A stretch of DNA of 35,971 nt from Nitrospinota bacterium (GTDB taxonomy: Bacteria > Nitrospinota > Nitrospinia > UBA9942), in contig JACQEW010000070.1 in assembly GCA_016200365.1 (NCBI GenBank), positions 1 through 35,971 of the forward strand, read 5' to 3'. Of the stretch, positions 877-35,971 are shown piece after piece. Both the position numbers and the translations under genes were made by a program. The notes beneath the pieces were generated by a model that saw only the letters and a program-made list of their open reading frames with translations, had not been told where the DNA came from and ran no database searches. The first letter of the stretch is position 1; each line of letters opens with the position of its first letter.

Positions 877-2159
877 AAAAGACAGAAGCAAGAGGCAAGA
901 AGCAAGAAGCAAGAAGTCAGAAGCAAGAATCTCTTGCCTCTTGCCTCTTGCCTCTTGCCTCTTGTTTCCTGCTTCTTGCCTCTTGCCTCTTGCCTCCTGT
1001 GGCAGCATGGGCAGAGGACACTTGCATATCGTGTCATAGGGAATCGGCAGAAGAGAGGGTAAAAGTTTCTATATCAGAGTGGGAAAAGAGTATTCACAAG
1101 ATTGAAAAGGTTAAGTGCCACGACTGCCACGGCGGAGATCCTGAATCAAAAGAAGGAAGCGGTGCACATAAAGTCAATTTTATCGGGAAGCCTGCGAGGG
1201 CAGATATACCGAAATTCTGCGGCAGGTGTCATATTCGTCCATTAAACGATTATCGTAAGAGTAAGCATGAGAGACTCCTGTCCGTGAAAAAGGAAGATGG
1301 CGGCGCCACATGCATTGACTGCCACGGATATCACAGGATAAAAACAAAAAAAGATACCGAGTCTCTTACCTATTATTTAAATGTTCCGCAGACATGCAGC
1401 AGGTGCCATTCCGATCCTGCGAGGATGAAACCATTTGATATGCCAACCAATCAATTTGAACTTTATGAGAAAGGGACGCATGGAGCTATCTTATACGGTA
1501 AGGTGCAGGAGGTAAGCAGGACATCAGCGCCTAATTGTGCCGTATGTCATGGGCATCATGACTCTATGATCTCAACCCATCAGGATATACCCCGCATCTG
1601 CGGTAAATGTCATCTGTCAACCTTTGATAATTTCAAAGAGGGACTTCACTTCGATGCCCTGAAAAAATCAGGGGAGCCGTCATGTGCTTACTGCCATGGT
1701 AATCATAAGGTAATAAGACCGAAGGGTGAGGTATTCGCCGGTTTCAAAAAGGGGGAGTGCGGAGAATGCCATGAAAAATCTTCGGAAGAATTTAAGGTGG
1801 GACTCAATATACAAGGCAGTATAGAAAGACTTGAAAGTTTAAGGAGAGAAGCGAAAAACAGTATCGAAGATGTAAAAAAATATGGAAGAAATACTGCAGA
1901 TTTGGAACAGTTGTATACCGAGCTCAATGCAAATATTCTCATGATTGCCCCTGCAAGCCATTCCCTTGATTTGGATGGGATAAATAAATATGTTGATAAA
2001 ATTTCCACCATATCGGAGGATATTAAAAGGAAGGTAGATGAATTTAAAATGGAGATAAGACATCGTTATGTGGTATATGTCATCTCTATGATAATAATCC
2101 TCACTGCAGTTATTATACTTTTCACACAGCTTTTAATTTATAAAAAGAGTGAGGCATGA
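858..2159 (+). CDS. Membrane-anchored nonaheme c-type cytochrome
   Basis: Nine CXXCH motifs: CISCH, CHDCH, CGRCH, CIDCH, CSRCH, CAVCH, CGKCH, CAYCH, CGECH. The N-terminus resembles a signal peptide ending AWA-ED, and there is a C-terminal TM helix (VVYVISMIIILTAVIILFTQLLIY). ATG at 858 overlaps the upstream gene. An in-frame GTG at 873 forms a GTGA overlap with the upstream stop. Confidence 0.9.
   Translation: MGIYFVKKTEARGKKQEARSQKQESLASCLLPLASCFLLLASCLLPPVAAWAEDTCISCHRESAEERVKVSISEWEKSIHKIEKVKCHDCHGGDPESKEGSGAHKVNFIGKPARADIPKFCGRCHIRPLNDYRKSKHERLLSVKKEDGGATCIDCHGYHRIKTKKDTESLTYYLNVPQTCSRCHSDPARMKPFDMPTNQFELYEKGTHGAILYGKVQEVSRTSAPNCAVCHGHHDSMISTHQDIPRICGKCHLSTFDNFKEGLHFDALKKSGEPSCAYCHGNHKVIRPKGEVFAGFKKGECGECHEKSSEEFKVGLNIQGSIERLESLRREAKNSIEDVKKYGRNTADLEQLYTELNANILMIAPASHSLDLDGINKYVDKISTISEDIKRKVDEFKMEIRHRYVVYVISMIIILTAVIILFTQLLIYKKSEA
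884..995. repeat. Heptad hairpin, GCAAGA family: about 6.5 AGAAGCA-type units followed by 9 CTTGCCT-type units
   Basis: Units were counted directly. The purine arm is 884-929, the short loop is TCT at 930-932, and the pyrimidine arm is 933-995. The whole hairpin lies inside the 5' end of the nonaheme cytochrome ORF. Confidence 0.85.
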
Positions 2160-2172
2160 AGAAAAAATTTTC

Positions 2173-2919
2173 TCATAGCGGCTCTGATATGCCAAGTCTT
2201 CTTATCATCATAAAGTGGGGTATTAAAAGAAAGATGAATATCCACGGCAGTATTGCTACATGAAGGGCAAAGAATCTGGTCAATGTAAGCTGTCCTACAT
2301 CTTCACCGCCCCTTGCTAATATCTTGATGGTATCTCCTATCACGGGAACTGCACCGGCTATCTCGGTGCCTACCACTGTTGCCCAGTAAGAGAGCTGAGT
2401 CCACGGGAGGAGGTATCCCGTAAAACCAAATATCAAAGTTAAGGAGTAAAGTGAAACACCTACAACCCAGTTAAGATCCCTCGGCGGTTTATAGGCAGCA
2501 GAGAAAAATACCTTAAGCAAATGAATAAAGATTGACAGTATCATTAGATTTGAAGCCCAATAATGGATACCCCTTATAAGCCAGCCATAGGGGACATTGT
2601 TGGTTATGTGGACAATGCTGTCGTATGCCTGGTCAACGGTGGGGCGGTAATACATGAGGAGCATTATACCTGTTATTACCTGAATTATAAAAAGAAAAAA
2701 GCTTATACCTCCGAAGCATCCCCAGACAGTAAGACCCTTTGGAACCGGTTTTTTAAGTATCTTCTGTATGGCAAGACGCAGCTCCAGTCTTTCATCCAAC
2801 TCGCCGTAAAAAAAACCTAAAAGGGCAATCCAGTTGAATAGATTTCTCCACCCCACCCCTTTTTTTATTTCTTCTTTTGTCTTATCAGATGCCCTTCTCC
2901 TTTCCATCTCATACCTCAA
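2173..2919 (-). CDS. Cytochrome b6-like protein (N-terminal four-helix cytochrome b domain)
   Basis: Typical cytochrome b/b6 sequence: VWGCFGG, ITGIMLLMYYRP, RGIHYWASNLMILSIFIHLLK and FFALHVAILPWIFIFLLIPHF carry the paired heme-b histidines. It ends with SEPL, as a split b6 does. Confidence 0.9.
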   Translation of the reverse strand: MRYEMERRRASDKTKEEIKKGVGWRNLFNWIALLGFFYGELDERLELRLAIQKILKKPVPKGLTVWGCFGGISFFLFIIQVITGIMLLMYYRPTVDQAYDSIVHITNNVPYGWLIRGIHYWASNLMILSIFIHLLKVFFSAAYKPPRDLNWVVGVSLYSLTLIFGFTGYLLPWTQLSYWATVVGTEIAGAVPVIGDTIKILARGGEDVGQLTLTRFFALHVAILPWIFIFLLIPHFMMIRRLGISEPL

Positions 2920-3003
2920 ATTGAGAAGGAATTCTCAAAAGGGACCCTCAATAAGGGTAAACTTACTTTCAAGAAAATTCCTTCGGATAAAATGATTCCT
3001 TCC

Positions 3004-3456
3004 TCATCCAATTATGACAGCATCCTCTATTAATTTGACATCGTATGTAATAAGAGGTTTTGGCGCTGGACCGGCAATAACATTTCCGTTAAGGTCGAAG
3101 ACGGCGCCGTGGCAGGGGCAGACTACCCGTTTTTGCCCCTCGCTCCAGTTGACAATACAACTCAGGTGCGTGCATATTGCAGACAGGGCATATATCTTTC
3201 CCCCGCTGTTAACGACTATAGCAGCCTTTCCTCTGAGAACTATCTTTTTGGCATTCCCCTCTGTTATTTCTGAAAATGGGATCCTGACCTTTTCTTCCCC
3301 GGTTGAGGCTATAGTTTTCCCGGTGGGCCAAAGGTACCTTAATCCTATAAAACCGAGTCCTATACCTACAACTAATGTCCAGATACCTATGATTCCATTT
3401 AAAGTATCTAAAAGAAATTCCCTTCTAACCATTTTTATTCGTACCATTTGTAACAA
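3004..3456 (-). CDS. Rieske [2Fe-2S] protein with a Tat-like signal anchor
   Basis: Rieske boxes CTHLSC and CPCHGAVF. The N-terminus has an RREFLL twin-arginine-like motif followed by a TM helix. The codon at 3456 is TTG; ATG alternatives are at 3447 and 3432. Confidence 0.9.
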   Translation of the reverse strand: MLQMVRIKMVRREFLLDTLNGIIGIWTLVVGIGLGFIGLRYLWPTGKTIASTGEEKVRIPFSEITEGNAKKIVLRGKAAIVVNSGGKIYALSAICTHLSCIVNWSEGQKRVVCPCHGAVFDLNGNVIAGPAPKPLITYDVKLIEDAVIIG

Positions 3457-3466: not shown

Positions 3467-3495
3467 ATTATAATCTTTCAAAAAGTGGCTGTCAA
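3467..3495 (-). promoter_or_regulatory. Consensus sigma70 promoter for the Rieske/cytochrome b unit
   Basis: The minus strand reads TTGACA (3495-3490), a 17-nt spacer, then TATAAT (3472-3467). It lies just upstream of the Rieske start codons. Confidence 0.6.
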
Positions 3496-3566
3496 CTGAA
3501 TTTTTGTCACTGAATTTTTGTCACTTGAATTTTTGTCAATGTCAATTTTTGTCAAGTGAATTTTTT
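3491..3566. repeat. Five tandem 14-16 bp direct repeats, GTCA(A/C)(N0-2)TGAATTTTT
   Basis: GTCAACTGAATTTTT, GTCACTGAATTTTT, GTCACTTGAATTTTT, GTCAATGTCAATTTTT, GTCAAGTGAATTTTTT. They fill the space between the two divergent -35 boxes. Confidence 0.75.
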
Positions 3567-3660: not shown

Positions 3661-5475
3661 ATGGCTGAGAAATTAAAAAGAACTCACAACTGCGGGGAGT
3701 TGAGGAGCGGCAATGCAGACGAGGCAGTTATACTTGCCGGATGGGTTCACAGACGGAGGGATCACGGCGGGCTTATCTTTATAGATTTAAGGGACAGGAA
3801 GGGGATTACACAGATCGTGCTCAACCCGGAGATTGATAAAATCGCACATACAAAGGCTCATGAGATAAGGAGCGAATATGTGCTTACAGTTAAGGGGAAA
3901 GTGGTTAAAAGACCTGAAGGGACGGCAAATTATAAGATAGGCACAGGGGAGATCGAAGTTATCGCAGAGGACATGGAAATCCTGAACGAATCAAAACCTT
4001 TGCCATTCTTAATAGAAGAAGGCGAGGAGGTATCGGAGATGCTGAGATTAAAATACAGATACCTCGATTTAAGGAGACCTTCACTCAGAGATAATATCAT
4101 ATTGAGGCACAGGGTTGTGAAGAAGGTGAGGGATTTTCTTGACAGCAGGGGTTTTCTGGAGATAGAGACACCCTTTCTCACTAAGAGCACGCCTGAAGGG
4201 GCAAGGGATTATCTTGTGCCGAGCAGATTGAATCCGGGCAAATTTTACGCCCTGCCGCAGTCGCCGCAATTATTCAAGCAAATACTGATGGTGGCAGGAT
4301 ATGAAAAATATTTTCAGGTGGTGAGGTGCTTCCGGGATGAAGATTTGAGGGCAGACAGACAGCCTGAATTTACCCAGATAGACATTGAGATGTCCTTCAT
4401 AGACAGGGAAGATTTGCTGCCGCTCATGGAAGAGATGATGTATGAGATATTCAAGTCATCCATATTCGTCGAGATACCGAGACCCTTTCCTGTCTTGAGC
4501 TACCATGAGGCGATGAACAGATTCGGCAGCGACAAACCCGATACGAGATTCGGGCTGGAGCTAAAGGATATAACATCGCCTGCCTCTAAATCGGATTTCA
4601 AGGTCTTTGCTGAAGCAATAAAAAATGGCGGGGAAGTAAGGGGGATTAATGCAAAGGGGTGCGCCGATTTCTCAAGAAAGGATCTGGACGATTTAACAGA
4701 GGAGTCAAAAATTTTCGGGGCAAAGGGGCTTGCATGGATAAAGATTACACCGGATGGTGTTCAATCTCCGATAGTGAAGTTTTTCTACCCCCCTGTATCC
4801 CCCCTTACAAAGGGGGGAGTGGAAGGGGTTGGGCTTCTTGACGAGATAGTAAGGATAATGGATGGAAAAGCCGGAGACTTGCTCCTCTTTGTTGCAGACA
4901 AGCCTAAGATTGTCTTCGATTCTCTATCTCATCTCCGTCTGAAGTTGGGAGAGAGATTAAAATTAATAGATGAAAATAAATTCAATTTTTTATGGGTAAC
5001 TGATTTCCCTCTGTTAGATTGGGATGAGGAGGGAAAAAGATGGGTTGCAATGCACCATCCCTTCACATCCCCTGTGGATGAAGACATACCCCTGTTTAAA
5101 ACCGACCCAAAGAAAATGAGGGCAAAGGCATACGACCTTGTTTTAAACGGCTCGGAGGTCGGAGGGGGGAGCATCAGGATACACAGAGGGGAGATTCAGA
5201 AACAGATGTTCGATGTCCTTGGATTGACAGAGGAAGAGGCAAAGGCAAAATTCGGCTTTCTCCTTGAGGCGCTTGAATACGGGACACCGCCCCACGGAGG
5301 GATTGCCTTTGGGCTCGACAGGCTCATGGCAATTCTCACAAATTCAAAATCCATCCGCGATGTGATAGCATTCCCGAAAACACAGAAGGCTGTCTGCCTT
5401 ATGACCGATGCGCCATCGAATGTAGAAAAGAGGCAGTTGAAGGAATTGAGCATCAAGCTCGATACCTTACAATGA
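3661..5475 (+). CDS. aspS: Aspartate--tRNA ligase (bacterial type)
   Basis: 604 aa. The N-terminal OB fold reads [20 protein letters not shown]. Class II motifs are present ([31 protein letters not shown]), along with a bacterial-type insertion domain. Confidence 0.95.
4786..4833. repeat. In-frame mini-palindrome inside aspS (CCCCCCTT-ACA-AAGGGGGG plus a G-run), encoding [15 protein letters not shown]
   Basis: The core hairpin 4799-4817 was read directly. The same architecture occurs at 7178-7223, 14108-14140 and 35906-35947. Confidence 0.7.
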
Positions 5476-6825: not shown

Positions 6826-6932
6826 ATCGAAGAAACTTTTCTCTCACTTCCGTTATTTTTCTTTTGCTATTTTTATAATTTTTTGAGGAACAAAAGAAAA
6901 ATAAAAAGTCGTTCGAGAAAAGTTTCTTCGAT
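6826..6932. repeat. 107-bp structured repeat, copy 1: an 18-bp perfect outer stem encloses a conserved A/T-rich arm pair
   Basis: Outer arms ATCGAAGAAACTTTTCTC (6826-6843) and GAGAAAAGTTTCTTCGAT (6915-6932). The inner arms are near-identical, in inverted orientation, to those at 15760-15868. It lies between convergent stop codons. Confidence 0.8.
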
Positions 6933-6953: not shown

Positions 6954-8930
6954 TTACACCTTCATAACAGGCACTGTTATCGTAAAGGCGGTTCCCTTCG
7001 ATATTTCGCTTTCTACCCTTATCTCCCCTCCATGCTCTTTAATGATTCCATAACTTATGGAGAGCCCCAGTCCTGTCCCTTTCCCAATCTCCTTTGTGGT
7101 AAAGAACGGGTCGAATATCTTTCCTATATATTCATTGGATATTCCATTCCCAGTATCAGAGATGATAACATTTACAAATCCCCCCTCACCCCCCTTTTCT
7201 AAAGGGGGGAATGGAGGGGTTATTCCATTCTTCGTCTCAACCTTAATCTTCCCGCCGCCGTTTGTTGCGTCCAGAGCATTGTGTATAATATTCAAAAACA
7301 CCTGCTCCAATCCAGCGGCGCTGCCGAATACAGGCGGCAGTCCATTATAAAGAGACTTCTCAAGTATTATGCCTTTTTTGGATATAGAGCCTTCAAGGAA
7401 CATCAGCACCCTTTCTATAATCTTATTTATATCCTGCGGGCTGAATTCATAAGATGACTCCCGTGAAAATGAGAGGAGGTTTCCTGTTATTTTGGAGACC
7501 CTCATAGCATGGTGCATCATAGCATTCATATCCTTAATAACCTTTTCCGGTATATCGCCGTTTGTATTCTCCATCTTTAACGCCTCTATCCTGTTTATTA
7601 TGATGCCTATAGGGTTATTTATCTCATGTGCAACCCCTGCCGCAAGCAGACCCAGAGATGCCATTTTTTCGGAGTGAATCAATTGCTTCTCATAATCCCT
7701 CACCTGCTTTGTCCTCTCCTCCACCTTTTCCTCGAGGCACCGGCTGTATATCTTGAGCTTCTCCGCCATATTATTAAACTCGGCCGCCACATCCTCAACC
7801 TCATCGCCGCTTCTTATATCCAGCCTGTAATCCAGATTCCCTTTTCCTATCAATTGAACACCCTCTTTTAGCTTTGAAAGCGGATGGGTAAGCATTTTGG
7901 AAATGAATACACCAATGAGTATGGTCAGGAGAACGGCAGCAAGAATTGTAGCTATAAACAGTCTTTTATAATCCTTTACGGCTGCTGTCAGGAGGTTCTT
8001 AGGATAGCTCTCGACAACCGTATAATAAAACTCCTTATTCCTTTCATCGGGGAATACAGCCGTATATGCGAACAGATTCTCATCATCATCCATCACTACT
8101 CCCGACCTGCCGGATAATACCTGAGAAACCACTACTTTTGAATATACATCATTTATATTATCGGGAGACTCGCCTGTATTTAACAAACTCTCCTCCGTCT
8201 CCCATTCGGGATTTAAAAAATAGAATCCCCTGTTGTTCAGAAGGAATATTCGGGAGGTTTTATCTACAATATGCCTCTTCATAGTATCGTAGAGATGCCT
8301 TCCCGTTACATCGAGGTATATAGCGCCCATCCATTTCCCGCTCCTGCCGTAAACAGGGGTGATATAGCGTATCAGGGCTATATTTGAGAGGTTAAGACCT
8401 TTAATCATCCGGCTTATCAATGGTATTGAAGCAACCTCACCCTGTGATAAATTTGCAGCCACATAAAAATGACTACTCCCTCTTTGATTATGCAGACTGC
8501 TTTTCGGAAGTATGACAGGATGGCGCATGTCATAGGCAACCAATGCTATCTCGTCTCCGTTCCGGGATAAAAAGCCTACCTGCAGATAAACCCCTTTTTG
8601 CTCTACAAGGTTAAAAAACTCTTTCTCCAGAAGGGTCCTCCAGTATGTAAAGGAGGCGATGTCATTTAATTCTATCGCCTCTAAAAGATACTCCAGCGGA
8701 GCAGAAGACCGGAGATAAAGCAAATCACCCTTGGAATTATCCAGATGGTTCTCTATATCCTTGCCCCTGGAAAAGACATCGAGGTACATTTTCCTCAGAG
8801 TATCATCCTGCAGAGAATTGCTTGCGGATTTTATGCTGTGATAGCCGAAGTATCCGATTGGCAGGATCGCTGCCAGCATCAAAGAGAGGAATATCTTGTT
8901 CTGGATTCTGGAAAAGAAATTGATTTTCAT
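6954..8930 (-). CDS. Sensor histidine kinase: TM, Cache-like periplasmic domain, TM, HAMP, HisKA, HATPase_c
   Basis: H-box AHEINNPIG, plus N/G boxes (IIHNALDAT, DTGNGI, GTGLGLS) and HAMP (LTHPLSKLKEGVQLIGKGNLDYRL). ATG at 8930 (MKINFF); the track start at 8945 is TTG. Confidence 0.9.
   Translation of the reverse strand: MKINFFSRIQNKIFLSLMLAAILPIGYFGYHSIKSASNSLQDDTLRKMYLDVFSRGKDIENHLDNSKGDLLYLRSSAPLEYLLEAIELNDIASFTYWRTLLEKEFFNLVEQKGVYLQVGFLSRNGDEIALVAYDMRHPVILPKSSLHNQRGSSHFYVAANLSQGEVASIPLISRMIKGLNLSNIALIRYITPVYGRSGKWMGAIYLDVTGRHLYDTMKRHIVDKTSRIFLLNNRGFYFLNPEWETEESLLNTGESPDNINDVYSKVVVSQVLSGRSGVVMDDDENLFAYTAVFPDERNKEFYYTVVESYPKNLLTAAVKDYKRLFIATILAAVLLTILIGVFISKMLTHPLSKLKEGVQLIGKGNLDYRLDIRSGDEVEDVAAEFNNMAEKLKIYSRCLEEKVEERTKQVRDYEKQLIHSEKMASLGLLAAGVAHEINNPIGIIINRIEALKMENTNGDIPEKVIKDMNAMMHHAMRVSKITGNLLSFSRESSYEFSPQDINKIIERVLMFLEGSISKKGIILEKSLYNGLPPVFGSAAGLEQVFLNIIHNALDATNGGGKIKVETKNGITPPFPPLEKGGEGGFVNVIISDTGNGISNEYIGKIFDPFFTTKEIGKGTGLGLSISYGIIKEHGGEIRVESEISKGTAFTITVPVMKV
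7178..7223. repeat. In-frame mini-palindrome inside the kinase ATPase domain, encoding PPFPPLEKGGEGGF
   Basis: Plus strand reads ATCCCCCCTCACCCCCCTTTTCTAAAGGGGGGAATGGAGGGGTTAT. The core hairpin is 7189-7209. Confidence 0.7.
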
Positions 8931-8934
8931 AATA

Positions 8935-9392
8935 GCAATGAGCAACGAGCAATGAGCAATGAGTATTATTTTTGGTATCTCTGTTTTTGTATAGAGACTT
9001 TCAGCCCCCCAATGATGCGAGAAACCTCAATAGCTAAATTACTTATATAATCGAATTCTTCCATGGTAATATAACCCACATCCATTGATACATATAATTG
9101 AGAACGGACTTCAGCACATGAAGCCTTCGCAATCACTATAAAACGATGAAATTCTGATCTGCTACCTCTCTCAAAACCTTCAGCAAGGTTAGACATGATA
9201 GAAACTGAAGATCTTTGAATTTGTTCACGAAGCCCAAAATCTTTCAAAAAAGGACTCTTTTTTGTCAGCAAATAGACCTGTTTTGTCAATTCTCTTGCCT
9301 TCTGCCATGCAACAAGGTCTTCAAATCTATTAACTTTCATCTTTATTCCTCCCTTTTTAATTGCTCATTGCTCATTACTCATTGCTCATTGC
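8935..9392. repeat. Cassette bounded by 29-nt inverted heptad repeats (GCAATGA units), enclosing one gene
   Basis: The left arm 8935-8963 (GCAATGAGCAACGAGCAATGAGCAATGAG) matches the reverse complement of the right arm 9364-9392 at 27 of 29 positions. Confidence 0.8.
8966..9340 (-). CDS. Four-helix-bundle protein ('23S rRNA intervening sequence protein' family)
   Basis: Family hallmarks [18 protein letters not shown] and [48 protein letters not shown] precedes the ATG at 9340. Confidence 0.85.
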
Positions 9393-10277
9393 TTAATACA
9401 AACTGGCGGTCATTTCATAATCCCTGACACACCTGAACCCGATAATATGGCTCACAGCCTCCGGCTCAACACCATCTTTGCTGGCGCACCGCACCTTTGG
9501 CGACAGGTCAACCCATGAGCCCCCCTTCACCACCTTCTTGTCTTTTCCTTGCTTTTGGTCACACCCGGGACAGCCGCCAAACCGGCTGTCCGTCCACTCC
9601 CTGACATTCCCGCCCATATCATGAACTCCATAAGGGCTTACATCTCCCTTGGCAATGCCGACAGGATTGCCTGTATTTACATTACATATCCCCTCTATAA
9701 TGTTTTCTAAAACCGCCTCTGCAGTGCTGGTTAATGCAGGGTCATATTTATCGCCCCACGGATAAGCCCTTCCATCCGTCCCCCTTGCAGCCTTTTCCCA
9801 TTCCTCCTCTGTAGGGAGCCTCTTTCCCGCCCACTTTGCATATTCCTTTGCATCATACCAGCTTATAAAAAGGACAGGATAATGAGCCTTTCCCGATGGA
9901 TACATGCCATTACTCCAATGCTTTGGTGCATGGTATCCGGTTGCATCTATAAATTTTTTATACTGTGCATTGGTTACTTCATATTTGTCAATAAAGAAAG
10001 ACTTTACATAGACCTTCCTCTTAGGCTTCTCGTTTTCATACAGATACCCTTCCATGCCTCCCTTATTGCCATAGACCTTTTTTACTTCCTTAATGTCGTC
10101 GTCGTCGCTCCCCATAACAAATTCACCTTCAGATATAAACACCATGCCCGTTCCATCAGCGCCTCCGCCACCATGTATATTCAGAGGGAGAGAAAAGACA
10201 GGGTAAACAATGAAGAACATAAACAATAAATTCTTTAATTTGGAAATTGGAAATTGGAAATTGGAAATTTTGCTCAT
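9393..10277 (-). CDS. Exported FGE-sulfatase (SUMF1/EgtB/PvdO) family protein, paralog 1
   Basis: YEVTNAQYKKF, GKRLPTEEEWEKAARGTDGRAYPWGD, GNVREWT, KGGSW, GFRC. The AGGAGG RBS and an ATGA overlap link it to the upstream gene. It has an extra CPGC loop. Confidence 0.85.
   Translation of the reverse strand: MSKISNFQFPISKLKNLLFMFFIVYPVFSLPLNIHGGGGADGTGMVFISEGEFVMGSDDDDIKEVKKVYGNKGGMEGYLYENEKPKRKVYVKSFFIDKYEVTNAQYKKFIDATGYHAPKHWSNGMYPSGKAHYPVLFISWYDAKEYAKWAGKRLPTEEEWEKAARGTDGRAYPWGDKYDPALTSTAEAVLENIIEGICNVNTGNPVGIAKGDVSPYGVHDMGGNVREWTDSRFGGCPGCDQKQGKDKKVVKGGSWVDLSPKVRCASKDGVEPEAVSHIIGFRCVRDYEMTASLY
10240..10267. repeat. Four TTGGAAA heptads (single arm) inside the 5' end of FGE paralog 1
   Basis: Counted directly. 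They are translated as ISNFQFPI. The same heptads in the same coding sense occur at 28064-28091. Confidence 0.8.
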
Positions 10278-12463: not shown

Positions 12464-12576
12464 GAAGAAGATTAAGGAGAAAGGGGGAAAGTGGAGAAAG
12501 GGAGAATATAAGTCTTTTTTTAAAAATAATTTTAAGATTTTTTCTCCATTTCTCCTCACCTCTCCCTTTCTTCTTG
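12462..12576. repeat. Imperfect hairpin, GGAGAAA family
   Basis: The purine arm 12462-12506 (AAGGAGAAAGGGGGAAAGTGGAGAAAGGGAGAA) faces the pyrimidine arm 12542-12576 (TTCTCCATTTCTCCTCACCTCTCCCTTTCTTCTTG). Confidence 0.7.
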
Positions 12577-13071: not shown

Positions 13072-13147
13072 CAAATGACGAGGGATGAAGGATGAGGGAC
13101 GAAAGACAAATATTTTCATTAATTCGTCAATCGTCTTTCGTTTGTTC

Positions 13148-23508: not shown

Positions 23509-24186
<678 letters not shown>

Positions 24187-24234
24187 AAGTCTGTCTTCTG
24201 TCATCTGTCTTCTGTCATCTGTCTTCTGACTTTT

Positions 24235-24919: not shown

Positions 24920-24930
<11 letters not shown>
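24235..24930 (+). CDS. ccdA: CcdA/DsbD-family thiol:disulfide electron-transfer membrane protein
   Basis: Six hydrophobic helices. Conserved Cys in TM1 (FFCLFQVTPFF) and in the PC..P box (YQPCVTPTL). Confidence 0.8.
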
Positions 24931-25774
<844 letters not shown>

Positions 25775-25853
25775 AAAATATTCACAATTAATCCTGTCAA
25801 GTTCTTAATTTTCTTTGTGTTCTTTGTGTCTTTGTGGTGAATTATGTTTTTAA

Positions 25854-26291
25854 ATGAAAATAAAGATATTCCTTCTATCCTTAGCCATTGTGAGCATCTT
25901 TTCGCTGATAAAGTATGTCTTCTATCAGTCAGCCGGCACTGATAGTGTGATGGGAATCTCTCACAATCTCGCCTGTCCATGCGAATGCCCTATGGTTCTC
26001 GAAGACTGCCACATGAGCTGCGGGATGGAATGGAAAGATATGATAGGACAGAGGCTGATGGCAGGCGGAAACAGGGACGATATTGAAGGGTATTTCTTTA
26101 AACGGTTCGGGAAAGAGGCGATGCTTACGCCTCTCCAGAGGATAAGCGGAAAATGGTATCAAATCACGAGGGGCGGTTATCCTTTGAGCGATATTATCCT
26201 TTTTTCGGCAATACTGCTTGTATGGTCAGGTGTGCTGTATTTTATAATAAGCGGGACAATTGATTTTCTAAAAAAGAGAATAAAAACTTGA
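25854..26291 (+). CDS. CcmH/NrfF-like protein with an atypical CPCEC motif
   Basis: N-terminal signal anchor. LACPCECPMVLEDC...IGQRLMAGGNRDDIEGYFFKRFGKEAMLTP follows the CcmH layout (LRCPxC ... G ... I ... RYG ... P), and a TM helix follows. Confidence 0.55.
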   Translation: MKIKIFLLSLAIVSIFSLIKYVFYQSAGTDSVMGISHNLACPCECPMVLEDCHMSCGMEWKDMIGQRLMAGGNRDDIEGYFFKRFGKEAMLTPLQRISGKWYQITRGGYPLSDIILFSAILLVWSGVLYFIISGTIDFLKKRIKT

Positions 26292-26391
26292 TTTTACCGC
26301 AGAGATGCAGAGGCACAGAGAAAAATATAAATATTTTAAAAAGATTTTAATATCTCTGCGTCTCCGCGCCTCTGCGGTTTATAATTTCCTT
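26282..26391. repeat. About 110-bp repeat element, copy 2 (hairpin 26296-26378 plus conserved flanks)
   Basis: Same orientation and near-identical arms and flanks as 11564-11674. Confidence 0.85.
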
Positions 26392-26394: not shown

Positions 26395-27189
26395 ATGAAA
26401 ATTTTAAAATTTACAATAGGTTTAATTTTACCCTTTGCAATTTTCAATATTCAATCTGCAATATCATTAGAACCTCCATTTCCACCAGACGGTATGGCTC
26501 TTGTGCCTGCCGGGGAGTTCATAATGGGCAGTAACAGGAACGAGATTGAAAAAGCTGTTAAGGATGCCGGCGGAAAAAAGGAGTGGTTTTTCGATGAAGA
26601 GCCGAAAAGGAAGGTAAACATCCCTTCTTTTTATATTGATATATACGAGGTAACAAACGAGGACTATAAAAAATTTGACCCAAACCACAGCTTCCCCTCT
26701 GATAGGGCAAAACATCCTGTAGTCAATATAACATGGAATAAGGCAAACGATTACTGTAAATGGGCAGGCAAAAGCCTGCCGACAGAGGAGGAATGGGAAA
26801 AGGCTGCAAGAGGGACAGATGAAAGGATTTATCCATGGGGAAATGAATTTGATAAACACTTAAATAATTCCTATGAATCCGGACTTGGAGGCGGTACAAG
26901 AGTTGGGCAGTTTGCTTTAGAAACATCAGGGGCCGCTGGTTTTGGAGGGACAACTGAGGTAGGGACATACAAAGATGGAAAGAGTCCTTACGGTGTATAC
27001 GATATGGCGGGAAATGTCTGGGAGTGGACAGATAACTGGTATAATAAAGAGAGAAATCTTAAGGTTATTAAAGGCGGGTCATGGCAGAGCCCTTCAATAA
27101 GCACAAGGAGCGCTGCGAGACTCGGCGAAAATCCTAACATGGAATCCAATGATTACGGATTCAGGTGTGCAAAGGACTACAAAAATTAG
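26395..27189 (+). CDS. Exported FGE-sulfatase family protein, paralog 3
   Basis: ATG at 26395 gives the signal peptide MKILKFTIGLILPFAIFNIQSA. YEVTNEDYKKF, GKSLPTEEEWEKAARGTDERIYPWGN, GNVWEWT, KGGSW, GFRCAK. The track start 26305 lies inside the hairpin. Confidence 0.85.
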   Translation: MKILKFTIGLILPFAIFNIQSAISLEPPFPPDGMALVPAGEFIMGSNRNEIEKAVKDAGGKKEWFFDEEPKRKVNIPSFYIDIYEVTNEDYKKFDPNHSFPSDRAKHPVVNITWNKANDYCKWAGKSLPTEEEWEKAARGTDERIYPWGNEFDKHLNNSYESGLGGGTRVGQFALETSGAAGFGGTTEVGTYKDGKSPYGVYDMAGNVWEWTDNWYNKERNLKVIKGGSWQSPSISTRSAARLGENPNMESNDYGFRCAKDYKN

Positions 27190-27219
27190 AAGTCAGAAGC
27201 CAGAAGTCAGAAGTCAGAA
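27188..27219. repeat. Four and a half AGAAGTC-type heptads (single arm)
   Basis: Counted directly. I found no complementary arm nearby. The repeat overlaps the stop codon of paralog 3. Confidence 0.75.
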
Positions 27220-28055: not shown

Positions 28056-28651
28056 TTAAATTTTCAATTTCCAATTTCCAATTTCCAATTTTATATCTAA
28101 AATCTAAAATTCAAAATTTGGTAGCCGCAGGCTTCAGCCTGCGTAATTCACTCACCCTAAAGGGTGCGGCTGCCTTATTCCTTTTGTTTCTTATAGTCAT
28201 AAGCTGCAGCAGCCCCGAATCAACTTCAACTAAACCCCAAACTTCAAAACCTGCGTCTGATTTTGCATTAAAAGACATCACAGGCAAAGAAGTAAAACTG
28301 GGCAGTCTCAAAGGGAAGGCGGTGATGGTCAATTTCTGGGCAACATGGTGTTATCCGTGCAGGGAGGAGATACCCGACCTCCAGAAAAGTTACGAAGAAA
28401 ATAAAGATAAGGGATTTATAATCCTCGGAGTCAATATAAAAGAGAACGAATCGAAGGTATCGAAGTTTGCAGAAGATTATAAGATAACCTATCCTGTCCT
28501 CCTCGATATTGACGGCTCTGTCAGTAATAAATATCAGGTATTCGGAGTCCCAATGAGCTTCTTCATAGATAAAAACGGCATTATAAAAGACAGCTTCGTA
28601 GGCATGATGACGAAAGAGGATATAGCAAAGAGGCTGGAGGCTATACTTTAG
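28052..28651 (+). CDS. TlpA/ResA-like thiol:disulfide oxidoreductase lipoprotein (canonical WCYPC)
   Basis: NFWATWCYPCREEIP, YQVFGVPMSFFID, lipobox LIVISC. The ATG at 28052 has a GGAGGG RBS and an ATGA overlap with the upstream stop. Confidence 0.85.
   Translation: MIKFSISNFQFPILYLKSKIQNLVAAGFSLRNSLTLKGAAALFLLFLIVISCSSPESTSTKPQTSKPASDFALKDITGKEVKLGSLKGKAVMVNFWATWCYPCREEIPDLQKSYEENKDKGFIILGVNIKENESKVSKFAEDYKITYPVLLDIDGSVSNKYQVFGVPMSFFIDKNGIIKDSFVGMMTKEDIAKRLEAIL
28064..28091. repeat. About four TTTCCAA heptads (complement of TTGGAAA), translated as ISNFQFPI
   Basis: Read directly. They lie inside the 5' end of the TlpA-like lipoprotein gene. Confidence 0.75.
28120..28173. repeat. Multi-stem element, copy 1 (GTAGCCGCAGGC-TTCA-GCCTGCG ... 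CACCC-TAAA-GGGTG-CGGCTGC)
   Basis: Two small hairpins are enclosed by outer GTAGCCG/CGGCT(A/G)C pairing. The second copy is at 35357-35445. Here the element is translated as VAAGFSLRNSLTLKGAA. Confidence 0.75.
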
Positions 28652-31247: not shown

Positions 31248-31272
31248 TTTAACCCCCTCCTTTTTTTAAAAG

Positions 31273-31364
31273 CTGCAAGTTGCAATTTGCAAACTGCAAG
31301 CAAAACCCAAAATCCGATTTAGGATTTTTGACCCAAATCCAGATTTTCTAAATCGGGATTTGGG
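31273..31364. repeat. TTGCAA-type heptads followed by the imperfect inverted repeat CCCAAAATCCGATTTAG / CTAAATCGGGATTTGGG
   Basis: Heptads CTGCAAG TTGCAAT TTGCAAA CTGCAAG at 31273-31300. The inverted-repeat arms 31306-31322 and 31348-31364 match at 15 of 17 positions. The element sits directly after the ECF sigma stop. Confidence 0.65.
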
Positions 31365-31915: not shown

Positions 31916-32163
31916 CTATCCCCTCATGAATATAAAAAACAAATATTTTATAAAAATTATTCCCATCAGGATATTTTTTTAAGATATAATAACACATATC
32001 TTACAGCTTCGACAGATTACATGCCATTTCTCTCTCTCATAAGGAGGTATGGTGAGTAAAGCGACCAAGCCCTTTTGCTTTTTTAGAAAGGAGGTGCAAT
32101 AGAAGAAAGTTAAGAGTTAAGAATTAAGAGTTAATAGTTAATAGCAAAAGGAGGAGATTTTAA

Positions 32164-33537
32164 ATGAAAAATATCTGCAAGTTATTCGGAAAAACCCTTA
32201 TTATTTTAACCCTTTTACTTTTTGGCTCTGCCGAGGCAGCGGTCATATCCGTCCCTTTGCAGTTTAAGAGCATTCAGGAGGCGGTTAATGCTGCATCTTC
32301 GGGTGATACGGTTCAGGTCTCTGCCGGCGTCTATAAAGAGCAAATCAAATTGAAGACGGGCGTAACAGTAAAAGGCGAAGGGTATGAAAAGACGACAATA
32401 GACGGCAGCAAGAAGGACGGCAGCGTAGTTGTCGGGGCAAGCGATGCCGTAATCGAAGGATTTACCATTAGGAACAGCGGTATCAGGGGCAGGCAGGGCG
32501 ATGCCATGGACGCAGGCATAAAGATAGACAGCGCTGCTATGGCGGTATTGAACAACAGGATTATAAATAACAATGCAGGCATCCTGTCATTTCACGGCTC
32601 GACCTCGCTCATTGCAAATAATATAATAGAGGAGAATGAGAATTTCGGCATCTATCTCATCTATTCAAACCCACTCATCGAAAACAATATCGTGTATCGA
32701 AACAAGGTTCGCGGTATCTTCTGCGCCTATTCAAAGCCTGAAATAGTGAATAATACCATCGTTGCCAACCCGACCGGTATATACACTGAAGTATCGAGCT
32801 CTGTAATTAAAAATAATATTATTACAGATTCCGATGCTATTGGGTTTCAGATAGCGGAATCGCCGAGGGACCAGAAGGGCGTAGAGCCTTATTTATCTTA
32901 CAATGTCTTTTATAATAATGGACATGACCTTTCCAATGTGGAGAAAGGGGAAGGCGATATTACGAAAGATCCATTATTTGCAGATGGAGCAAAAAGGGAT
33001 TTCAGGTTAAAACCGAATTCCCCTGCGGCAAATGCCGGCGACCCTGATCCAAAATATAATGACCCTGATAGAAGCAGGGCAGATGCAGGCGCTTTCGGGG
33101 GTTCCCATGCAGCCGGCAAGGAAAAAAGCAGGAACTGGACAGCTTTTAAAAAATCAAAAGAAGGTGAGGCTGTTGCAATAGAGAAGAACTATATGACAGC
33201 CCGCAGCCTCAGCGAGAAAGGGTCAAAGGGCTATAAAGAGGAAAATACCAGGGTCAACTATTACAGCTACTGCGCCCCTTGTCATGGACAGACAGGAAAA
33301 GGTGACGGCCCCCTTGCAGAAAGTCTGGAGCAGGGAGTTGTGCCTCGAGATCATACGAGTGCGGAATATTTTTCCCAAAAGACAGATGATGAGATTTTTG
33401 AAGTGATAAAACACGGCGGTGTAAAGGCGGGATTCAGCGAGACAATGCCGCCCTTTGACGGACAGATTTCCGATGACGCTATGAGAGACCTTGTAAAATT
33501 CATAAGGGAGCTCTGCAATTGTCAGTATAAGAAGTAA
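32164..33537 (+). CDS. Exported right-handed parallel beta-helix (NosD/CASH-like) protein fused to a C-terminal monoheme cytochrome c domain
   Basis: Signal peptide. Repeated beta-helix rungs (ITIRNSGIRG, IINNNAGILSF, IIEENENFGIYLIYS, IVYRNKVRGIFCAYS, TIVANPTGIYTE). The C-terminus has YCAPCHGQTGKGDGP ... TMPPF. AGGAGG RBS. Confidence 0.85.
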   Translation: MKNICKLFGKTLIILTLLLFGSAEAAVISVPLQFKSIQEAVNAASSGDTVQVSAGVYKEQIKLKTGVTVKGEGYEKTTIDGSKKDGSVVVGASDAVIEGFTIRNSGIRGRQGDAMDAGIKIDSAAMAVLNNRIINNNAGILSFHGSTSLIANNIIEENENFGIYLIYSNPLIENNIVYRNKVRGIFCAYSKPEIVNNTIVANPTGIYTEVSSSVIKNNIITDSDAIGFQIAESPRDQKGVEPYLSYNVFYNNGHDLSNVEKGEGDITKDPLFADGAKRDFRLKPNSPAANAGDPDPKYNDPDRSRADAGAFGGSHAAGKEKSRNWTAFKKSKEGEAVAIEKNYMTARSLSEKGSKGYKEENTRVNYYSYCAPCHGQTGKGDGPLAESLEQGVVPRDHTSAEYFSQKTDDEIFEVIKHGGVKAGFSETMPPFDGQISDDAMRDLVKFIRELCNCQYKK

Positions 33538-33546: not shown

Positions 33547-33588
33547 CCCCTTACCCCTCCCATAATCGAGGGGTAAGGGGCATTTTTT
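33547..33588 (+). terminator. Intrinsic terminator
   Basis: A 13-bp perfect stem CCCCTTACCCCTC / GAGGGGTAAGGGG with an 8-nt loop, followed by TTTTTT (33583-33588). Confidence 0.8.
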
Positions 33589-34163: not shown

Positions 34164-35342
34164 ATGAAGGCAAATAAAATATCCTCTATCTTATTCTTCT
34201 TTTTCCTCATCACTCATTGCTCATTACTCATTGCTTTTTTCACCGGCTGTTCCTCCGACCCAAAAAAGCTCACCAAATTACAACTCATAGAATCGGGACT
34301 CTTTCGTAACTATCAAAAAGAAGAACTGCTAACACCCTTTAAAAAGACAGATGTCATCTACACACAGGACACACAAGCAGTCATGTGGATAAAACTAAAA
34401 GACATAGAAGGGAATCATACACTAAGATGGGACTGGCTCTCCCCTGACAAAAACATCTATTTCAAGACACAGGACTTTGAAATAAACCTCGATTCAAAGA
34501 AGCACAATCTAAATACATCAGTCCATAGAATCGGCATAAGAGGAGAGAGGGCAGAAAAACTAACAGGAGAATGGCAGGTCAATGTCTATCTGGATAACTA
34601 TCTTATAGCCTCCAGACACTTTAACCTATTACCCGGCATAGGAGACATAGACTCATACATAACAAAGGGTCCTGAAATTAGAATAAAACAGGACAAAACA
34701 AAATGGGCTGTCCTCATAGGAATAGAGAAATATAGAAACACTACACCAGCAACATACTCCTCACATGATGCCGTCCTAATGAAAGAATACCTCAGTAAAT
34801 TCGCAGGAGTCCCTGACGAAAATATCTTTCTAATGACAGATGACAAAGCAACCAAAAGTGAGATTGAGATGCTCATGCAGGACAGAATAAAAAAGCTCGT
34901 AAAAGAAGGAGACACACTCTATTTCTACTATGCAGGACACGGTATTCCTGATGTAGGAGACCAGACCCCATATATCCTCCCCTCGGACGGCAACCCGGAT
35001 AACCCAAGGATGAGTGGTTATCCATTAGAAAGACTCTACAAAGACCTCACAGACCTCAAGGCAAAGAATATCTATCTATTTATAGATGCCTGTTTTTCGG
35101 GTATGAGCGGCAGAGAGCAGAAAGATACCATGCTATTAGCAGGTCGTCCGGGGACACTCATAGTCAAAGACCCTGTCATAGCATCAGAAAAAATCGCCCT
35201 GCTTGCAGCATCGAGAGAGAACCAAATCAGCAACTTCTATAAAGAAGAAGAACATGGATTATTCACATACTATTTACTTAAAGGGATGATAGGAGAAGCT
35301 GACATAAATAGAGATAATAAGATTAACCCAAATAATGCGTGA
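34164..35342 (+). CDS. Caspase-like (peptidase C14) lipoprotein
   Basis: The ATG at 34164 has a GGAGGTG RBS. Lipobox-like FFTGC. The catalytic dyad context is YFYYAGHG and LFIDACFSG. The track start is 34134. Confidence 0.85.
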   Translation: MKANKISSILFFFFLITHCSLLIAFFTGCSSDPKKLTKLQLIESGLFRNYQKEELLTPFKKTDVIYTQDTQAVMWIKLKDIEGNHTLRWDWLSPDKNIYFKTQDFEINLDSKKHNLNTSVHRIGIRGERAEKLTGEWQVNVYLDNYLIASRHFNLLPGIGDIDSYITKGPEIRIKQDKTKWAVLIGIEKYRNTTPATYSSHDAVLMKEYLSKFAGVPDENIFLMTDDKATKSEIEMLMQDRIKKLVKEGDTLYFYYAGHGIPDVGDQTPYILPSDGNPDNPRMSGYPLERLYKDLTDLKAKNIYLFIDACFSGMSGREQKDTMLLAGRPGTLIVKDPVIASEKIALLAASRENQISNFYKEEEHGLFTYYLLKGMIGEADINRDNKINPNNA

Positions 35343-35356
35343 ATTTTAAAAACCCT

Positions 35357-35445
35357 GGTAGCCGCAGGCTTTAGCCTGCGATTGAATGCACTTAAAATGC
35401 GAATAAATTATCGGTAAGTAACGCACCCGTAAAGGGTGCGGCTAC
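35357..35445. repeat. Multi-stem element, copy 2
   Basis: GGTAGCCGCAGGCTTTAGCCTGCG, about 43 nt, then CACCCGTAAAGGGTGCGGCTAC. The terminal modules match 28120-28173 but the linker is longer. Confidence 0.75.
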
Positions 35446-35498
35446 AAACCAAATCCACTCGGAAGGGAGATAAATCCGATACTGGTAAATCTGGAATA

Positions 35499-35971
35499 AT
35501 GAATATTCACCGCAGAGACGCAAAGACGCAGAGAGAAACAATAAGGAGAAATGAGGAAAGAAAGGATTTCTTTTCTACATCTCCTAACCTTCTTTTTTTC
35601 TCCTTAATCTTTTTTTTGTTTTTATATTTCTCTGTGTCTCCGCGTCTCTGCGGTGAAACAGCCTTTGCCTCGGACTGTGACTGGGTAGAGGCAACAGGTG
35701 AAGCAGTCGTAGAAAATATCACCCCAGACGAAGCCAGACAACTTGCCATTAACCGGGCAAGAATATCAGCAATAGAAAGCAAGACAGGGGTAAAAGTTCA
35801 TGGCACAACAATGGTCAAAGACTATAACCTCATGGCAGATATAGTTCAAACACTATCTCAAGGCTATATCATAGACGAAAAGATTATCAAATGGGAGCAG
35901 GGAGAAGTCCCCCTTACTAAAGGGGGTCAGGGGGTTGTAATCCCCCTAACAACCTACAAAGTAAAATTAAG
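35499..35971 (+). CDS. Partial (3'-truncated by the window) exported protein, LPP20-like
   Basis: This open frame runs from the ATG at 35499 to the window end and is absent from the track because it has no stop. It translates as MNIHRRDAKTQRETIRRNEERKDFFSTSPNLLFFSLIFFLFLYFSVSPRLCGETAFASDC...DEARQLAINRARISAIESKTG. Confidence 0.6.
   Translation, partial: MNIHRRDAKTQRETIRRNEERKDFFSTSPNLLFFSLIFFLFLYFSVSPRLCGETAFASDCDWVEATGEAVVENITPDEARQLAINRARISAIESKTGVKVHGTTMVKDYNLMADIVQTLSQGYIIDEKIIKWEQGEVPLTKGGQGVVIPLTTYKVKL
35508..35655. repeat. Two-layer nested hairpin: GCAGAGA-type outer arms around a GGAGAAA-type inner hairpin
   Basis: CACCGCAGAGACGCAAAGACGCAGAGAGAAAC (35508-35539) faces TTCTCTGTGTCTCCGCGTCTCTGCGGTG (35628-35655). 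The inner purine and pyrimidine arms span 35541-35610. Confidence 0.8.
35906..35947. repeat. In-frame mini-palindrome encoding VPLTKGGQGVVIPL
   Basis: AGTCCCCCTTACTAAAGGGGGTCAGGGGGTTGT, followed by a second small hairpin AGGGGG-TTGTAAT-CCCCCT. Confidence 0.8.

Follow-up and report, generated by a model that had tools for sequence, protein, structure and literature searches.

What are the long hairpins that punctuate this contig, and how did they come to lie between, and even inside, its genes? The window studied here, an entire contig of 35,971 bp from an uncultured groundwater Nitrospinota (Nitrospinae) bacterium, contains inverted repeats whose arms are tandem arrays of short units, many of them 7 nt long (heptads). 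An initial annotation had described these as one vocabulary of nested hairpins, unlike several known repeat classes; the observation was confirmed here and the interpretation was partly supported. In our view the hairpins probably form a superfamily of small selfish palindromic elements, restricted to one lineage and for the most part without genes, that circulate horizontally and are related to the intervening-sequence (IVS) and miniature inverted-repeat transposable element (MITE) types. Fetched loci of relatives or homologues compared with the window carry L-numbers (L001, L004, etc.); the related loci were all Nitrospinota metagenome-assembled genomes (MAGs) from groundwater or sediment.

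Periodicity, placement and folding of the arrays

Arrays were detected with Tandem Repeats Finder, an inverted-repeat finder and a strict periodicity scan with 30 dinucleotide shuffles as the null, and start codons used for array placement were corrected via alignments to relatives. Arrays and paired arms were recovered at essentially all 15 inverted repeats of the initial list. The strict scan returned 16 period-7 arrays and one period-8 array in the window and none in the shuffles, with no enrichment at the other periods from 4 to 15. Nine of these 17 arrays were intergenic, seven lay within the first 45 codons of a gene and one within the last 15 codons; core coding sequence accounts for 70.7% of the window and held none (P = 8e-10). 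The window arrays are thus tandem, over-represented, mainly non-coding 7-nt units, as heptameric simple sequence repeats (SSRs) are by definition. When 14 listed hairpins were folded as RNA, ΔG ranged from −23 to −129 kcal/mol and z from −5 to −18, whichever strand was taken. Elements of these kinds, and sometimes the identical element, were present in more than 10 independent assemblies from separate projects, which excludes an assembly artefact. Enrichment outside core coding sequence was upheld, together with the reality of the repeats; the view that hairpins fill nearly every junction was too strong, as several junctions hold other palindromes or nothing.

Three kinds of element were distinguished (Table 1). 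The first are true heptad hairpins, with which one period-8 hairpin was grouped. The second have units of 8-10 nt (CACAGAGA, CGCAGAGA, CACAAAGG and ACACGGATG types), as do about half of the elements initially described as mostly 7-nt; their units begin with (A)CC(A/G)CA and their flanks are conserved and asymmetric, and GGAGAAA-type layers were grouped with them. The third kind is a T-rich palindrome without periodicity, present in two window copies (88% identity over 81 nt), one of which had been listed as a tandem-array element at 15760-15868. Missing from the initial list were the gene-enclosing pair 8934-8963/9360-9393 and single arrays at 10240, 27188, 28059, 31270, 32108 and 34206. The contiguous 7-10-nt units, inverted arms and lack of spacer structure agree with the earlier statement that these are not CRISPR arrays, in which direct repeats of 23-50 nt alternate with unique spacers of similar length.

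At least 23 unit families were counted in 130 kb, and this limited vocabulary recurs, as had been noted, also across related genomes. Heterocystous cyanobacteria have short tandemly repeated repetitive (STRR) sequences with the units CCCCAGT, TTGGTCA and CAACAGT; none of these is among the 23 families, and the host here belongs to Nitrospinota. A purine-rich 5′ arm faced a pyrimidine-rich 3′ arm in 14 of 18 hairpins detected in window and relatives, the polarity being reversed in three and mixed in one. The regular mismatch in each heptad was also recovered: AGAAGCA opposite CTCTTGC leaves an A·C in plus-strand RNA that is a G·U in minus-strand RNA (ΔG −59 vs. −78), and AGAAGTC opposite TTCTGTC leaves one U·U. 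Counting G·U against A·C as a sign of the functional RNA strand gave no signal (42 sense vs. 48 antisense), so the sequence itself demands no role at the RNA level. Avoidance of stop codons was rejected as a general property of the units, since 18 of 44 arrays were stop-free on both strands, compared to 42% of random genomic heptamers; the replacement of TTCTGAC by TTCTGTC, which removes one TGA, is a single anecdote. Intrinsic terminators were not enriched in a consensus scan (19 terminator-like sites vs. 17.6 expected), a promoter consensus scan stayed at chance level, and the CTTGATTTT and TATAAT flanks of the 8-nt elements do not form a spaced promoter.

Dispersal and insertion at hairpin apices

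The 155-nt ACACGGATG element at 19429-19592 was 96% identical to L004 8475-8628, a solitary copy at a different junction, and the CGCAGAGA copies at 11564-11680 and 26282-26391 shared 89% over 112 nt. Together with the two T-rich palindromes, these are dispersed copies at non-orthologous sites of the sort that characterizes MITEs. The AGTAAGC/ACTGCCT family of the hairpin at 23541 also occurs at two other junctions in L001, and an element shared by L016 (8113-8178) and L001 reappears at another place in L021. The hairpin at 13450-13530 was 100% identical to that of L004 over 81 nt, compared to 84.5% for window and L004 DNA overall, about 82% for the block that flanks it, and 82-86% for flanks between these two genomes. 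Similarly, the permease/GldG hairpins of L004 and L021 differed at 1 of 72 nt, with DNA of about 78% identity. Identical elements stand at non-orthologous sites and are conserved far better than the DNA that flanks them (96-100% vs. 82-85%); they are therefore dispersed and have probably moved recently. A common pool from which they lately spread would explain this, the elements presumably being younger than their hosts, and gene conversion is the alternative.

The concentric layering of the hairpins, read initially as modules added at apices, is shown by comparison with relatives to be just that, in three independent cases. The ACACGGATG element sits inside CACAAAGG and GGAGAAA layers, and L004 has the same outer shell around a different inner element. 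The loop of the terminator at 19674-19764 holds a CCCCTCA...TGAGGGG palindrome in the window and L004, which is missing from five other relatives. In the third case, a whole gene lies within the loop of an AGCAATG hairpin and is missing in the relatives sampled at that junction. GC-rich palindromes of the form CCCCTyACCCC...GGGGTrAGGGG were seen as another dispersed family (33547-33580, the inner part of 19698-19750, and L002 9078-9125), with one copy in a terminator loop and one at an operon junction of a relative.

Turnover at orthologous junctions

In six close relatives the density was 2-5 heptad arrays per 10 kb; the two that were compared with the window for DNA identity, L021 and L004, gave 73% and 85%. 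Sixteen loci at greater distance had no heptad array, among them L007, L008 and L011, which are Nitrospinota loci with conserved synteny. The array trait is lineage-restricted and its turnover is fast. Comparison of orthologous junctions revealed differences in both presence and family. At the ABC ATPase/permease junction, the window, L004, L016, L021 and L003 have five different hairpins made of heptad or 8-10-nt arrays, L002 has a GC-rich palindrome without arrays instead, and L001 and the outgroups have an empty site (TAAAAGATG). Turnover was alike at the permease/GldG, GldG/DUF4340, DUF4340/next gene and FGE1/histidine kinase junctions, and clean empty alleles were found at junctions in L001, L003 and L016. 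Where relatives have the same family at the same site, its copy number differs. An element that L016 has in complete, nested form is reduced in L002 to its left arm, which explains single arrays by decay. Filled and empty alleles permit a TA, TTA or TAA duplication at one junction and nothing elsewhere, array sequence masking the boundaries. Four contigs of one population with 99.9% identity showed no indel in 12-14 kb, in which two arrays were sampled, and hypermutable slippage or phase variation was rejected on that sample of two.

An 8-10-nt-unit element stands directly before the ABC ATPase start in every relative sampled, with no obvious Shine-Dalgarno site. Upstream of this gene, L016, L021, L002, L003 and L001 have a sigma-70-like promoter (TTGACA...TATTAT) and a small terminator-like hairpin, ACCCAGTTTATGGGTATTTTTT, both ahead of the 8-10-nt-unit element; in L016 this leader region is at about 8020-8110. 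Promoter and hairpin are both lacking in the window and L004, indicating that the leader of the ABC ATPase operon has been remodelled there.

Hairpins translated as probable signal peptides

All seven in-coding arrays of the window lie in genes for exported proteins, just 3′ of conserved starts. Five genes with hairpins in their 5′ coding ends (those for a periplasmic binding protein, FGE1, the product of gene 24920, the monohaem cytochrome 13148-13528 and the multihaem cytochrome) were compared, and upstream of the inserts the start codon, the ribosome-binding site or an ATGA stop/start overlap was conserved. About 16 distinct insert alleles were found in these genes, all open and in frame, among them a three-layer insert of 230 nt in L021 and two consecutive elements in L004. 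Palindromes inside coding genes that keep the frame are typical of Rickettsia palindromic elements (RPEs), to which these inserts have no sequence relation.

The N-terminus of the multihaem cytochrome reads MKKTEARGKKQEARSQKQESLASCLLPLASCFLLLASCLLPPVAAWA/EDTCISCH in the window. A homologue of 72% identity has a GGAGAAA-type hairpin at this place, one of 68% has an AGAAGCA-like hairpin, and homologues at 33-42% identity have ordinary signal peptides. Of the monohaem cytochrome segment MRQETRSKKLEARKILYLASCFLLLLFKLPSYA/GD, only the SYA/GD cleavage region is shared with hairpin-less relatives. Neither protein has another hydrophobic segment before its first CxxCH, and both must be exported, from which we infer that the repeat-encoded segment serves as the signal peptide in both. 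Averaged over 14 hairpins, all frames and both strands, Kyte-Doolittle hydropathy was −2.35 for the 5′ arms and +1.63 for the 3′ arms; the genetic code makes a purine-to-pyrimidine palindrome encode polar and then hydrophobic residues on either strand. A neutral reading is that cleaved leaders are merely permissive sites. The cytochromes at 873-2159 and 13148-13528 are unusually clear natural examples of probable signal peptides built from repeats. In L032, another metagenomic contig, several heptad arrays (887-1015 and 1634-1660) lie within the body of a glycosyltransferase and are read in frame (...SAISHQRSAISGQRSAVSRQNSAIRNPQSAIGKPETRNPKPET...), and heptad arrays are thus not confined to leaders everywhere.

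A heptad-armed PF05635 cassette

One heptad pair encloses a gene. On the sense strand, its arms are GAGCAAT units at 9360-9393 and CTCATTG units at 8934-8963, and the interior holds a Shine-Dalgarno site and a gene for a PF05635 four-helix-bundle protein of 124 aa (8966-9340; E 8.6e-37). The cassette exactly fills the spacer from the FGE1 stop to the histidine-kinase start, a junction at which L003, L016 and L021 lack it. In the fold of its 476-nt RNA, a closing heptad stem of 30 bp is present in both the minimum-free-energy and the centroid structure (ΔG −142, z −5.8). The stretch 8934-9393 thus has the long terminal stem around a PF05635 (S23p) open reading frame (ORF) that distinguishes the IVSs of 23S rRNA; its location is between genes of the FGE-sulfatase family and of a histidine kinase, not in 23S helix 25 or 45.

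PF05635 'intervening-sequence' proteins are pentameric four-helix bundles homologous to Avd of diversity-generating retroelements, and their genes are very common; in many bacterial genomes, no other long simple repeats are as over-represented as heptamers. We know of no function for heptamer repeats or PF05635 genes outside diversity-generating retroelements, and of no transposase activity of a PF05635 protein. For a survey of such genes, 80 metagenomic loci were fetched, of which 72 were distinct (GC 37-61%) and 70 evaluable for flanks. Complementary upstream and downstream flanks scoring ≥18 were found at 37 of the 70; the highest shuffle reached 16.5, and most were below 13. Strict heptad arrays lay ≤150 nt from the PF05635 gene in 42 of 76 cases, at 2.07 per kb vs. 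0.15 per kb elsewhere, an enrichment of about 14-fold across the 72 metagenomic homologues. Away from the gene, the same contigs had 0.12-0.22 arrays per kb in every GC class, and 258 kb of control loci had none. On the sense strand, the flanking units follow the pattern (TGAGnnn)n upstream and (nnnCTCA)n downstream and include AGCAATG, GGACTGA, GTGATGA and GCACTGA.

The AGCAATG cassette recurs at other stop/start junctions in L030 and L033 and also in a Nitrospirae MAG, L101 has two cassettes of different heptad families, and PF05635 homologues at 70-78% identity come from Nitrospirota, Desulfobacterales and other phyla. A crude ORF scan was uninformative as to how generally the cassettes lie between same-strand genes, for which there are individual examples. 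Wherever a single gene was cleanly enclosed by inverted heptad arrays in the fetched loci, it was PF05635 every time; two further pairings, around a HigA-like ORF in L042 and around ccdA in the window, looked coincidental and were rejected. In L108 (10376-10465; Nitrospirae MAG GCA_016208965.1), a direct AATGAGC array of 13 units follows the PF05635 gene and is itself followed by the inverted CTCATTG arm, and the flanking arrays of L084, L099, L100 and L087 are direct, not inverted, which indicates that arms can expand or flip.

A broader proposal, which we regard as rather doubtful, is that PF05635 proteins are trans-acting partners of heptamer arrays. Heptad-armed PF05635 cassettes would then be an autonomous mobile form aimed at hairpin apices and stop/start spacers, and gene-less hairpins, perhaps along with much of the bacterial excess of heptamer SSRs (Xanthomonas, cyanobacteria, Beggiatoaceae), would be non-autonomous derivatives. 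If this were true, a side effect would be a ready module of n-region and h-region that creates or replaces signal peptides in either orientation. No candidate for an autonomous relative of the elements was noticed besides the PF05635 cassette, no test having been aimed at such relatives. The contig and its relatives link two long-standing puzzles, the excess of heptamers and the PF05635 genes, in a concrete and testable form: heptad arrays behave as discrete, moving palindromic elements that nest in hairpin loops and form stems around PF05635 genes over a GC range of 37-61%, with close homologues in several phyla.

Relation to known repeats

The closest counterpart of the cassette is the IVS of Coxiella burnetii, which interrupts helix 45 of 23S rRNA over 428-444 nt, contains an S23p (PF05635) ORF preceded by 3 or 4 tandem GACAGAT/GACAGAA heptamers, their number varying among strains, and has a ΔG of −143; its terminal stem of 28 bp is cut by RNase III in vitro (PMC4990558). 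S23p-bearing IVSs of 23S rRNA are also known from Leptospira and Brucella (PMC4990558). Both structures span about 430-460 nt, have arms of 28-30 bp, a PF05635 ORF in the loop, heptamers before it and a ΔG of about −142, and both insert at the apex of a pre-existing helix. They differ in that the window cassette occupies an mRNA spacer between protein genes rather than 23S helix 25 or 45, has full heptad arrays as both arms, and has only a putative RNase III cleavage; moreover, most window hairpins have no ORF. The cassette thus extends the architecture of IVSs from rRNA to mRNA spacers.

Heptamer SSRs offer a second parallel. Xanthomonas has about 70 intergenic convergent pairs of GGGAATC arrays able to form stem-loops (PMC4692102), and heptameric SSRs or STRR sequences are described from cyanobacteria and Beggiatoaceae (Mazel, 1990; Mrazek, 2007; as cited in PMC4692102 and PMC4679880). 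These resemble the window arrays in being tandem 7-nt repeats that are intergenic, often directly 5′ of starts, and variable in length and sequence among close relatives. In contrast, the repeats of Xanthomonas, cyanobacteria and Beggiatoaceae consist of one or few unit sequences, unrelated to the at least 23 families here, and the window arrays are layered concentrically, move between sites and are translated inside signal peptides.

Bacterial MITE-type repeats (Correia/NEMIS, ERIC, RUP, YPAL and RPEs) likewise form stem-loop transcripts and in-frame ORF fusions; a Yersinia element is part of a predicted signal peptide, and the stems of Neisseria Correia elements are RNase III targets (PMC2229807). 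As to the earlier statement that the hairpins do not look like MITEs with terminal inverted repeats and target-site duplications, their behaviour does resemble that of this group: they are small, non-autonomous, dispersed, form long stem-loops and occur between genes as well as fused in frame. They differ in structure, since MITE-type repeats are non-periodic, have defined terminal inverted repeats and usually a TA duplication, whereas the window arms are tandem arrays with ill-defined termini. With these precedents in IVSs, Xanthomonas and MITEs, the basic architecture is not new. Not found described in the literature were a multi-family vocabulary, movement combined with apex nesting, routine use as signal peptides, and a general link between PF05635 and heptads outside rRNA.

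Repetitive extragenic palindromic (REP) sequences and their doublets (REPINs) are palindromes of 20-40 bp with a GTAG or CGTC tag, mobilised by REP-associated tyrosine transposases (RAYTs; PMC3116915, PMC3733652). Like REPs, the window elements are short extragenic palindromes in many copies between genes; unlike them, heptad and 8-10-nt elements have no tag and are 70-320 bp long. The separation from REPs and their mosaic elements thus holds for the hairpins and not for the window as a whole, which also contains three GTAG-tagged palindromes, GTAGCCGCAGGCTTyAGCCTGCG (GTAGCCGCA), at 28121-28145 (+), 35358-35380 (+) and 35421-35445 (−), where 0.08 are expected. The latter two form an inverted, REPIN-like doublet about 60 nt apart. 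This suggests that another part of the genome may encode a RAYT-type system, which would be distinct from the heptad hairpins.

Origin of the hairpins

If the hairpins are selfish elements, their main points of entry would be the loops of hairpins already present, besides 5′ leaders and AT-rich stop/start spacers; insertion into loops would give concentric layers, and decay by deletion would leave single arrays. They would persist only where a hairpin is harmless, that is, in intergenic sites or in the cleaved signal-peptide-coding end of genes for exported proteins, where, whichever way the element is oriented, a charged n-region would come from the purine-rich 5′ arm and a hydrophobic h-region from the pyrimidine-rich 3′ arm. 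AGCAATG, as at least one family, would be the stem of a gene-carrying cassette of the 23S IVS design, with heptamers in its long stem and a PF05635 ORF in its loop. By analogy with IVSs, transcribed stems are most likely substrates of RNase III, and gene-less hairpins are most likely ORF-less relatives of PF05635 cassettes.

Several points weigh against this interpretation. The window contains no transposase, RAYT or other mobilising gene; as had been stated initially, domain scans of all window ORFs detected no transposase or RAYT domain. Comparison of filled and empty junctions yielded no clean target-site duplication, and repeated occupation of a spacer of a few nucleotides would require either that targets are strongly preferred or that an ancestral hairpin was replaced again and again. 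The high conservation of the elements could have another source, such as gene conversion or constraint. In this lineage, only the AGCAATG family is tied to PF05635, and the other window families do not have the TGAG/CTCA core found beside PF05635 genes. Finally, G·U pairs show no bias to the transcribed strand.

An alternative is that the hairpins are regulatory RNA structures selected by the host, which segment polycistronic mRNAs for processing or stability, or bridge stop to start and so keep translation coupled. Hairpins placed exactly between stop and start inside operons, where outgroups have overlapping or abutting stop and start codons, would fit such a role, as would the element before the ABC ATPase start in every relative sampled, stems of sufficient length for RNase III, and the documented effects of Correia and ERIC elements on mRNA (PMC2229807). 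Among close relatives, however, every junction shows hairpins present or absent and families replaced, and L001, L003 and L016 have cleanly empty alleles; syntenic outgroups dispense with them, and neither a sense-strand G·U bias nor an excess of terminator-like sites was found. We regard selection for regulation as improbable.

Less likely still is that the arrays arose in place as ordinary, immobile SSRs, the polymerase slipping on heptamers and then switching strands, so that the array is copied in inverted form. An excess of heptamers is reported as a general feature of bacterial SSRs and ascribed to how long a stretch of DNA the polymerase holds (Mrazek, 2007, as cited in PMC4679880 and PMC4692102), arms are internally homogenised down to the family-specific mismatch in each heptad, and copy number varies between relatives with the same family at the same site. 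Slippage in place does not account for whole elements that recur, with their loops and imperfect units, at non-orthologous sites with 88-96% identity and better conservation than their flanks, nor for one small vocabulary recurring across genomes, and the two arrays sampled in the four 99.9%-identical contigs had no indel. The same contigs speak against the arrays in 5′ coding ends being contingency loci, in which one unit more or less would shift the frame and toggle an exported protein. Seven is not a multiple of three, these arrays lie just 3′ of the starts of exported proteins, and heptamer copy number varies among Coxiella strains (PMC4990558); yet all of the roughly 16 alleles are in frame, most arrays are intergenic, and the genes concerned are housekeeping respiratory and cytochrome-maturation genes, which makes phase switching very unlikely.

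Elements and other features of the window

The elements of the window are listed in Table 1.

Table 1. Repeat elements of the window, with arm units, genomic context and encoded peptides.
Feature	Position	Strand	Units, context and product
Heptad hairpin	876-999		AGAAGCA ×6.6 opposite CTCTTGC ×9.4; ΔG −59/−78; within 5′ end of multihaem cytochrome c gene 873/858-2159 (+); encodes KKTEARGKKQEARSQKQE + SLASCLLPLASCFLLLASCLLPPVAAWA/ED
T-rich non-periodic palindrome	6826-6932		Between convergent HlyD and histidine-kinase genes; copy of 15758-15870
IVS-like cassette (heptad hairpin, pair 8934/9360)	8934-9393	−	Heptad arms around PF05635 gene 8966-9340
Single array, sense TTTCCAA ×4.3	10240-10269	−	Codons 3-12 of FGE1, MSKISNFQFPIS...; family also at 28059
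8-nt-unit element, CGCAGAGA type (8-10-nt kind)	11564-11680		Asymmetric flanks CTTGATTTT...TTTATAATTTCC; in frame at 5′ end of periplasmic-binding-protein gene, 3′ of conserved MLQxN start
GGAGAAAG-type hairpin	12462-12576		Between FGE2 stop and start of next gene
GGATGAA/GACGAAA-type hairpin	13072-13147		Between convergent genes; not in the initial list
Heptad hairpin, AAGAAGC opposite TTCTTGC	13452-13529	−	Codons 2-26 of monohaem cytochrome c, MRQETRSKKLEARKILYLASCFLLLLFKLPSYA/GD
Two-layer hairpin (8-10-nt kind outside, heptad hairpin inside)	14228-14368		Outer CACAGAGA type, inner GCAAGAG heptads 14273-14337; intergenic
T-rich non-periodic palindrome	15758-15870		Between GldG-like and DUF4340 genes
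Period-8 hairpin, AGAGCACC opposite CTGGTGCC (grouped with heptad hairpins)	17466-17540		Exactly between ABC-2 permease stop and GldG-like start
Heptad hairpin, TTTCAAT/TTTACGA opposite CGTAAAT	18327-18399		Reversed polarity; between ABC ATPase stop and permease start
Four-layer nested hairpin (8-10-nt kind)	19354-19668		Upstream of ABC ATPase gene; ΔG −128; layers from outside in: CACAAAGG, GGAGAAA, 155-nt ACACGGATG element (19429-19592), core stem
Intrinsic terminator of cytochrome c gene 19783-20907	19674-19764	−	Loop holds CCCCTCA...TGAGGGG palindrome
Heptad hairpin, AGTAAGC opposite ACTGCCT	23541-23625		One A·C per heptad
Heptad hairpin, CAGAAGT/GACAGAG opposite TCTGTCT	24141-24243		Spans 3′ end of ResA-like gene and spacer before ccdA
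Heptad hairpin, AGAAGTC ×5.1 opposite TTCTGTC ×4.7	24929-25036	+	Codons 4-39 of gene 24920-25774, MNTKIRSQKSEVRSQKSKNKTTILFFFLSSVFCLLSSDVFA/SD
Two-layer element (8-10-nt kind)	25696-25843		Outer CACAAAGG, inner ACAGGATAA
CGCAGAGA element, second copy (8-10-nt kind)	26282-26391		Directly upstream of FGE3 start
Single AGAAGTC array, half element	27188-27219	+	Between FGE3 and next gene
AATTTCC + ATCTAAA arrays	28059-28110	+	5′ coding end of second ResA-like lipoprotein
AAGTTGC array	31270-31300		5′ untranslated spacer
AGTTAAG array	32108-32144	+	5′ leader of gene 32164-33537
CTCATTG array, family of the cassette arms	34206-34235	+	Encodes lipoprotein signal-peptide h-region, LITHCSLLIAFFTGC
Two-layer element (8-10-nt kind)	35506-35657		Outer CGCAGAGA, inner GGAGAAA type

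The gene set of the window is ordinary: a bc-type complex with a multihaem cytochrome, aspartyl-tRNA synthetase (AspRS), an ABC-2/GldG transporter operon, a cytochrome c maturation cluster, three FGE-sulfatase-family proteins and sigma/anti-sigma pairs. Rfam gave no match in the window at gathering thresholds, rRNA included, and no tRNA was found. A look-up of AspRS as an identical protein returned no record. The bc-type module at 64-3456 is unusual in itself, as it combines a CBS-domain protein fused to the PetD-like C-terminal half of cytochrome b with the multihaem cytochrome c, a divergent cytochrome b6-like N-terminal half and a Rieske protein.

Three further repeats were noted in the window. 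A small palindrome, CCCCCCTTnnnAAAGGGGGG, followed by nTGGAGGGG, occurs in frame within coding sequence, where it gives the peptide motif P-L-x-K-G-G-x-G; copies lie at 4790-4830 (AspRS), 7180-7215 (histidine kinase), 14112-14137 (gene 13525-14205) and 35909-35934. Its presence inside the essential AspRS gene indicates an RPE-like intragenic insertion. In the leader of the AspRS gene (3490-3565), a direct repeat of about 15 nt (TGTCAACTGAATTTT) stands in five copies, for which a period of 29 scored as well; it forms no hairpin and may represent operator or iteron-like sites. At the start of the contig (1-63), immediately upstream of its first gene, there is a perfect stem of 16 bp, GGTTCAGCCCCTGA...TCAGGGGCTGAACC, with a ΔG of −30.6.

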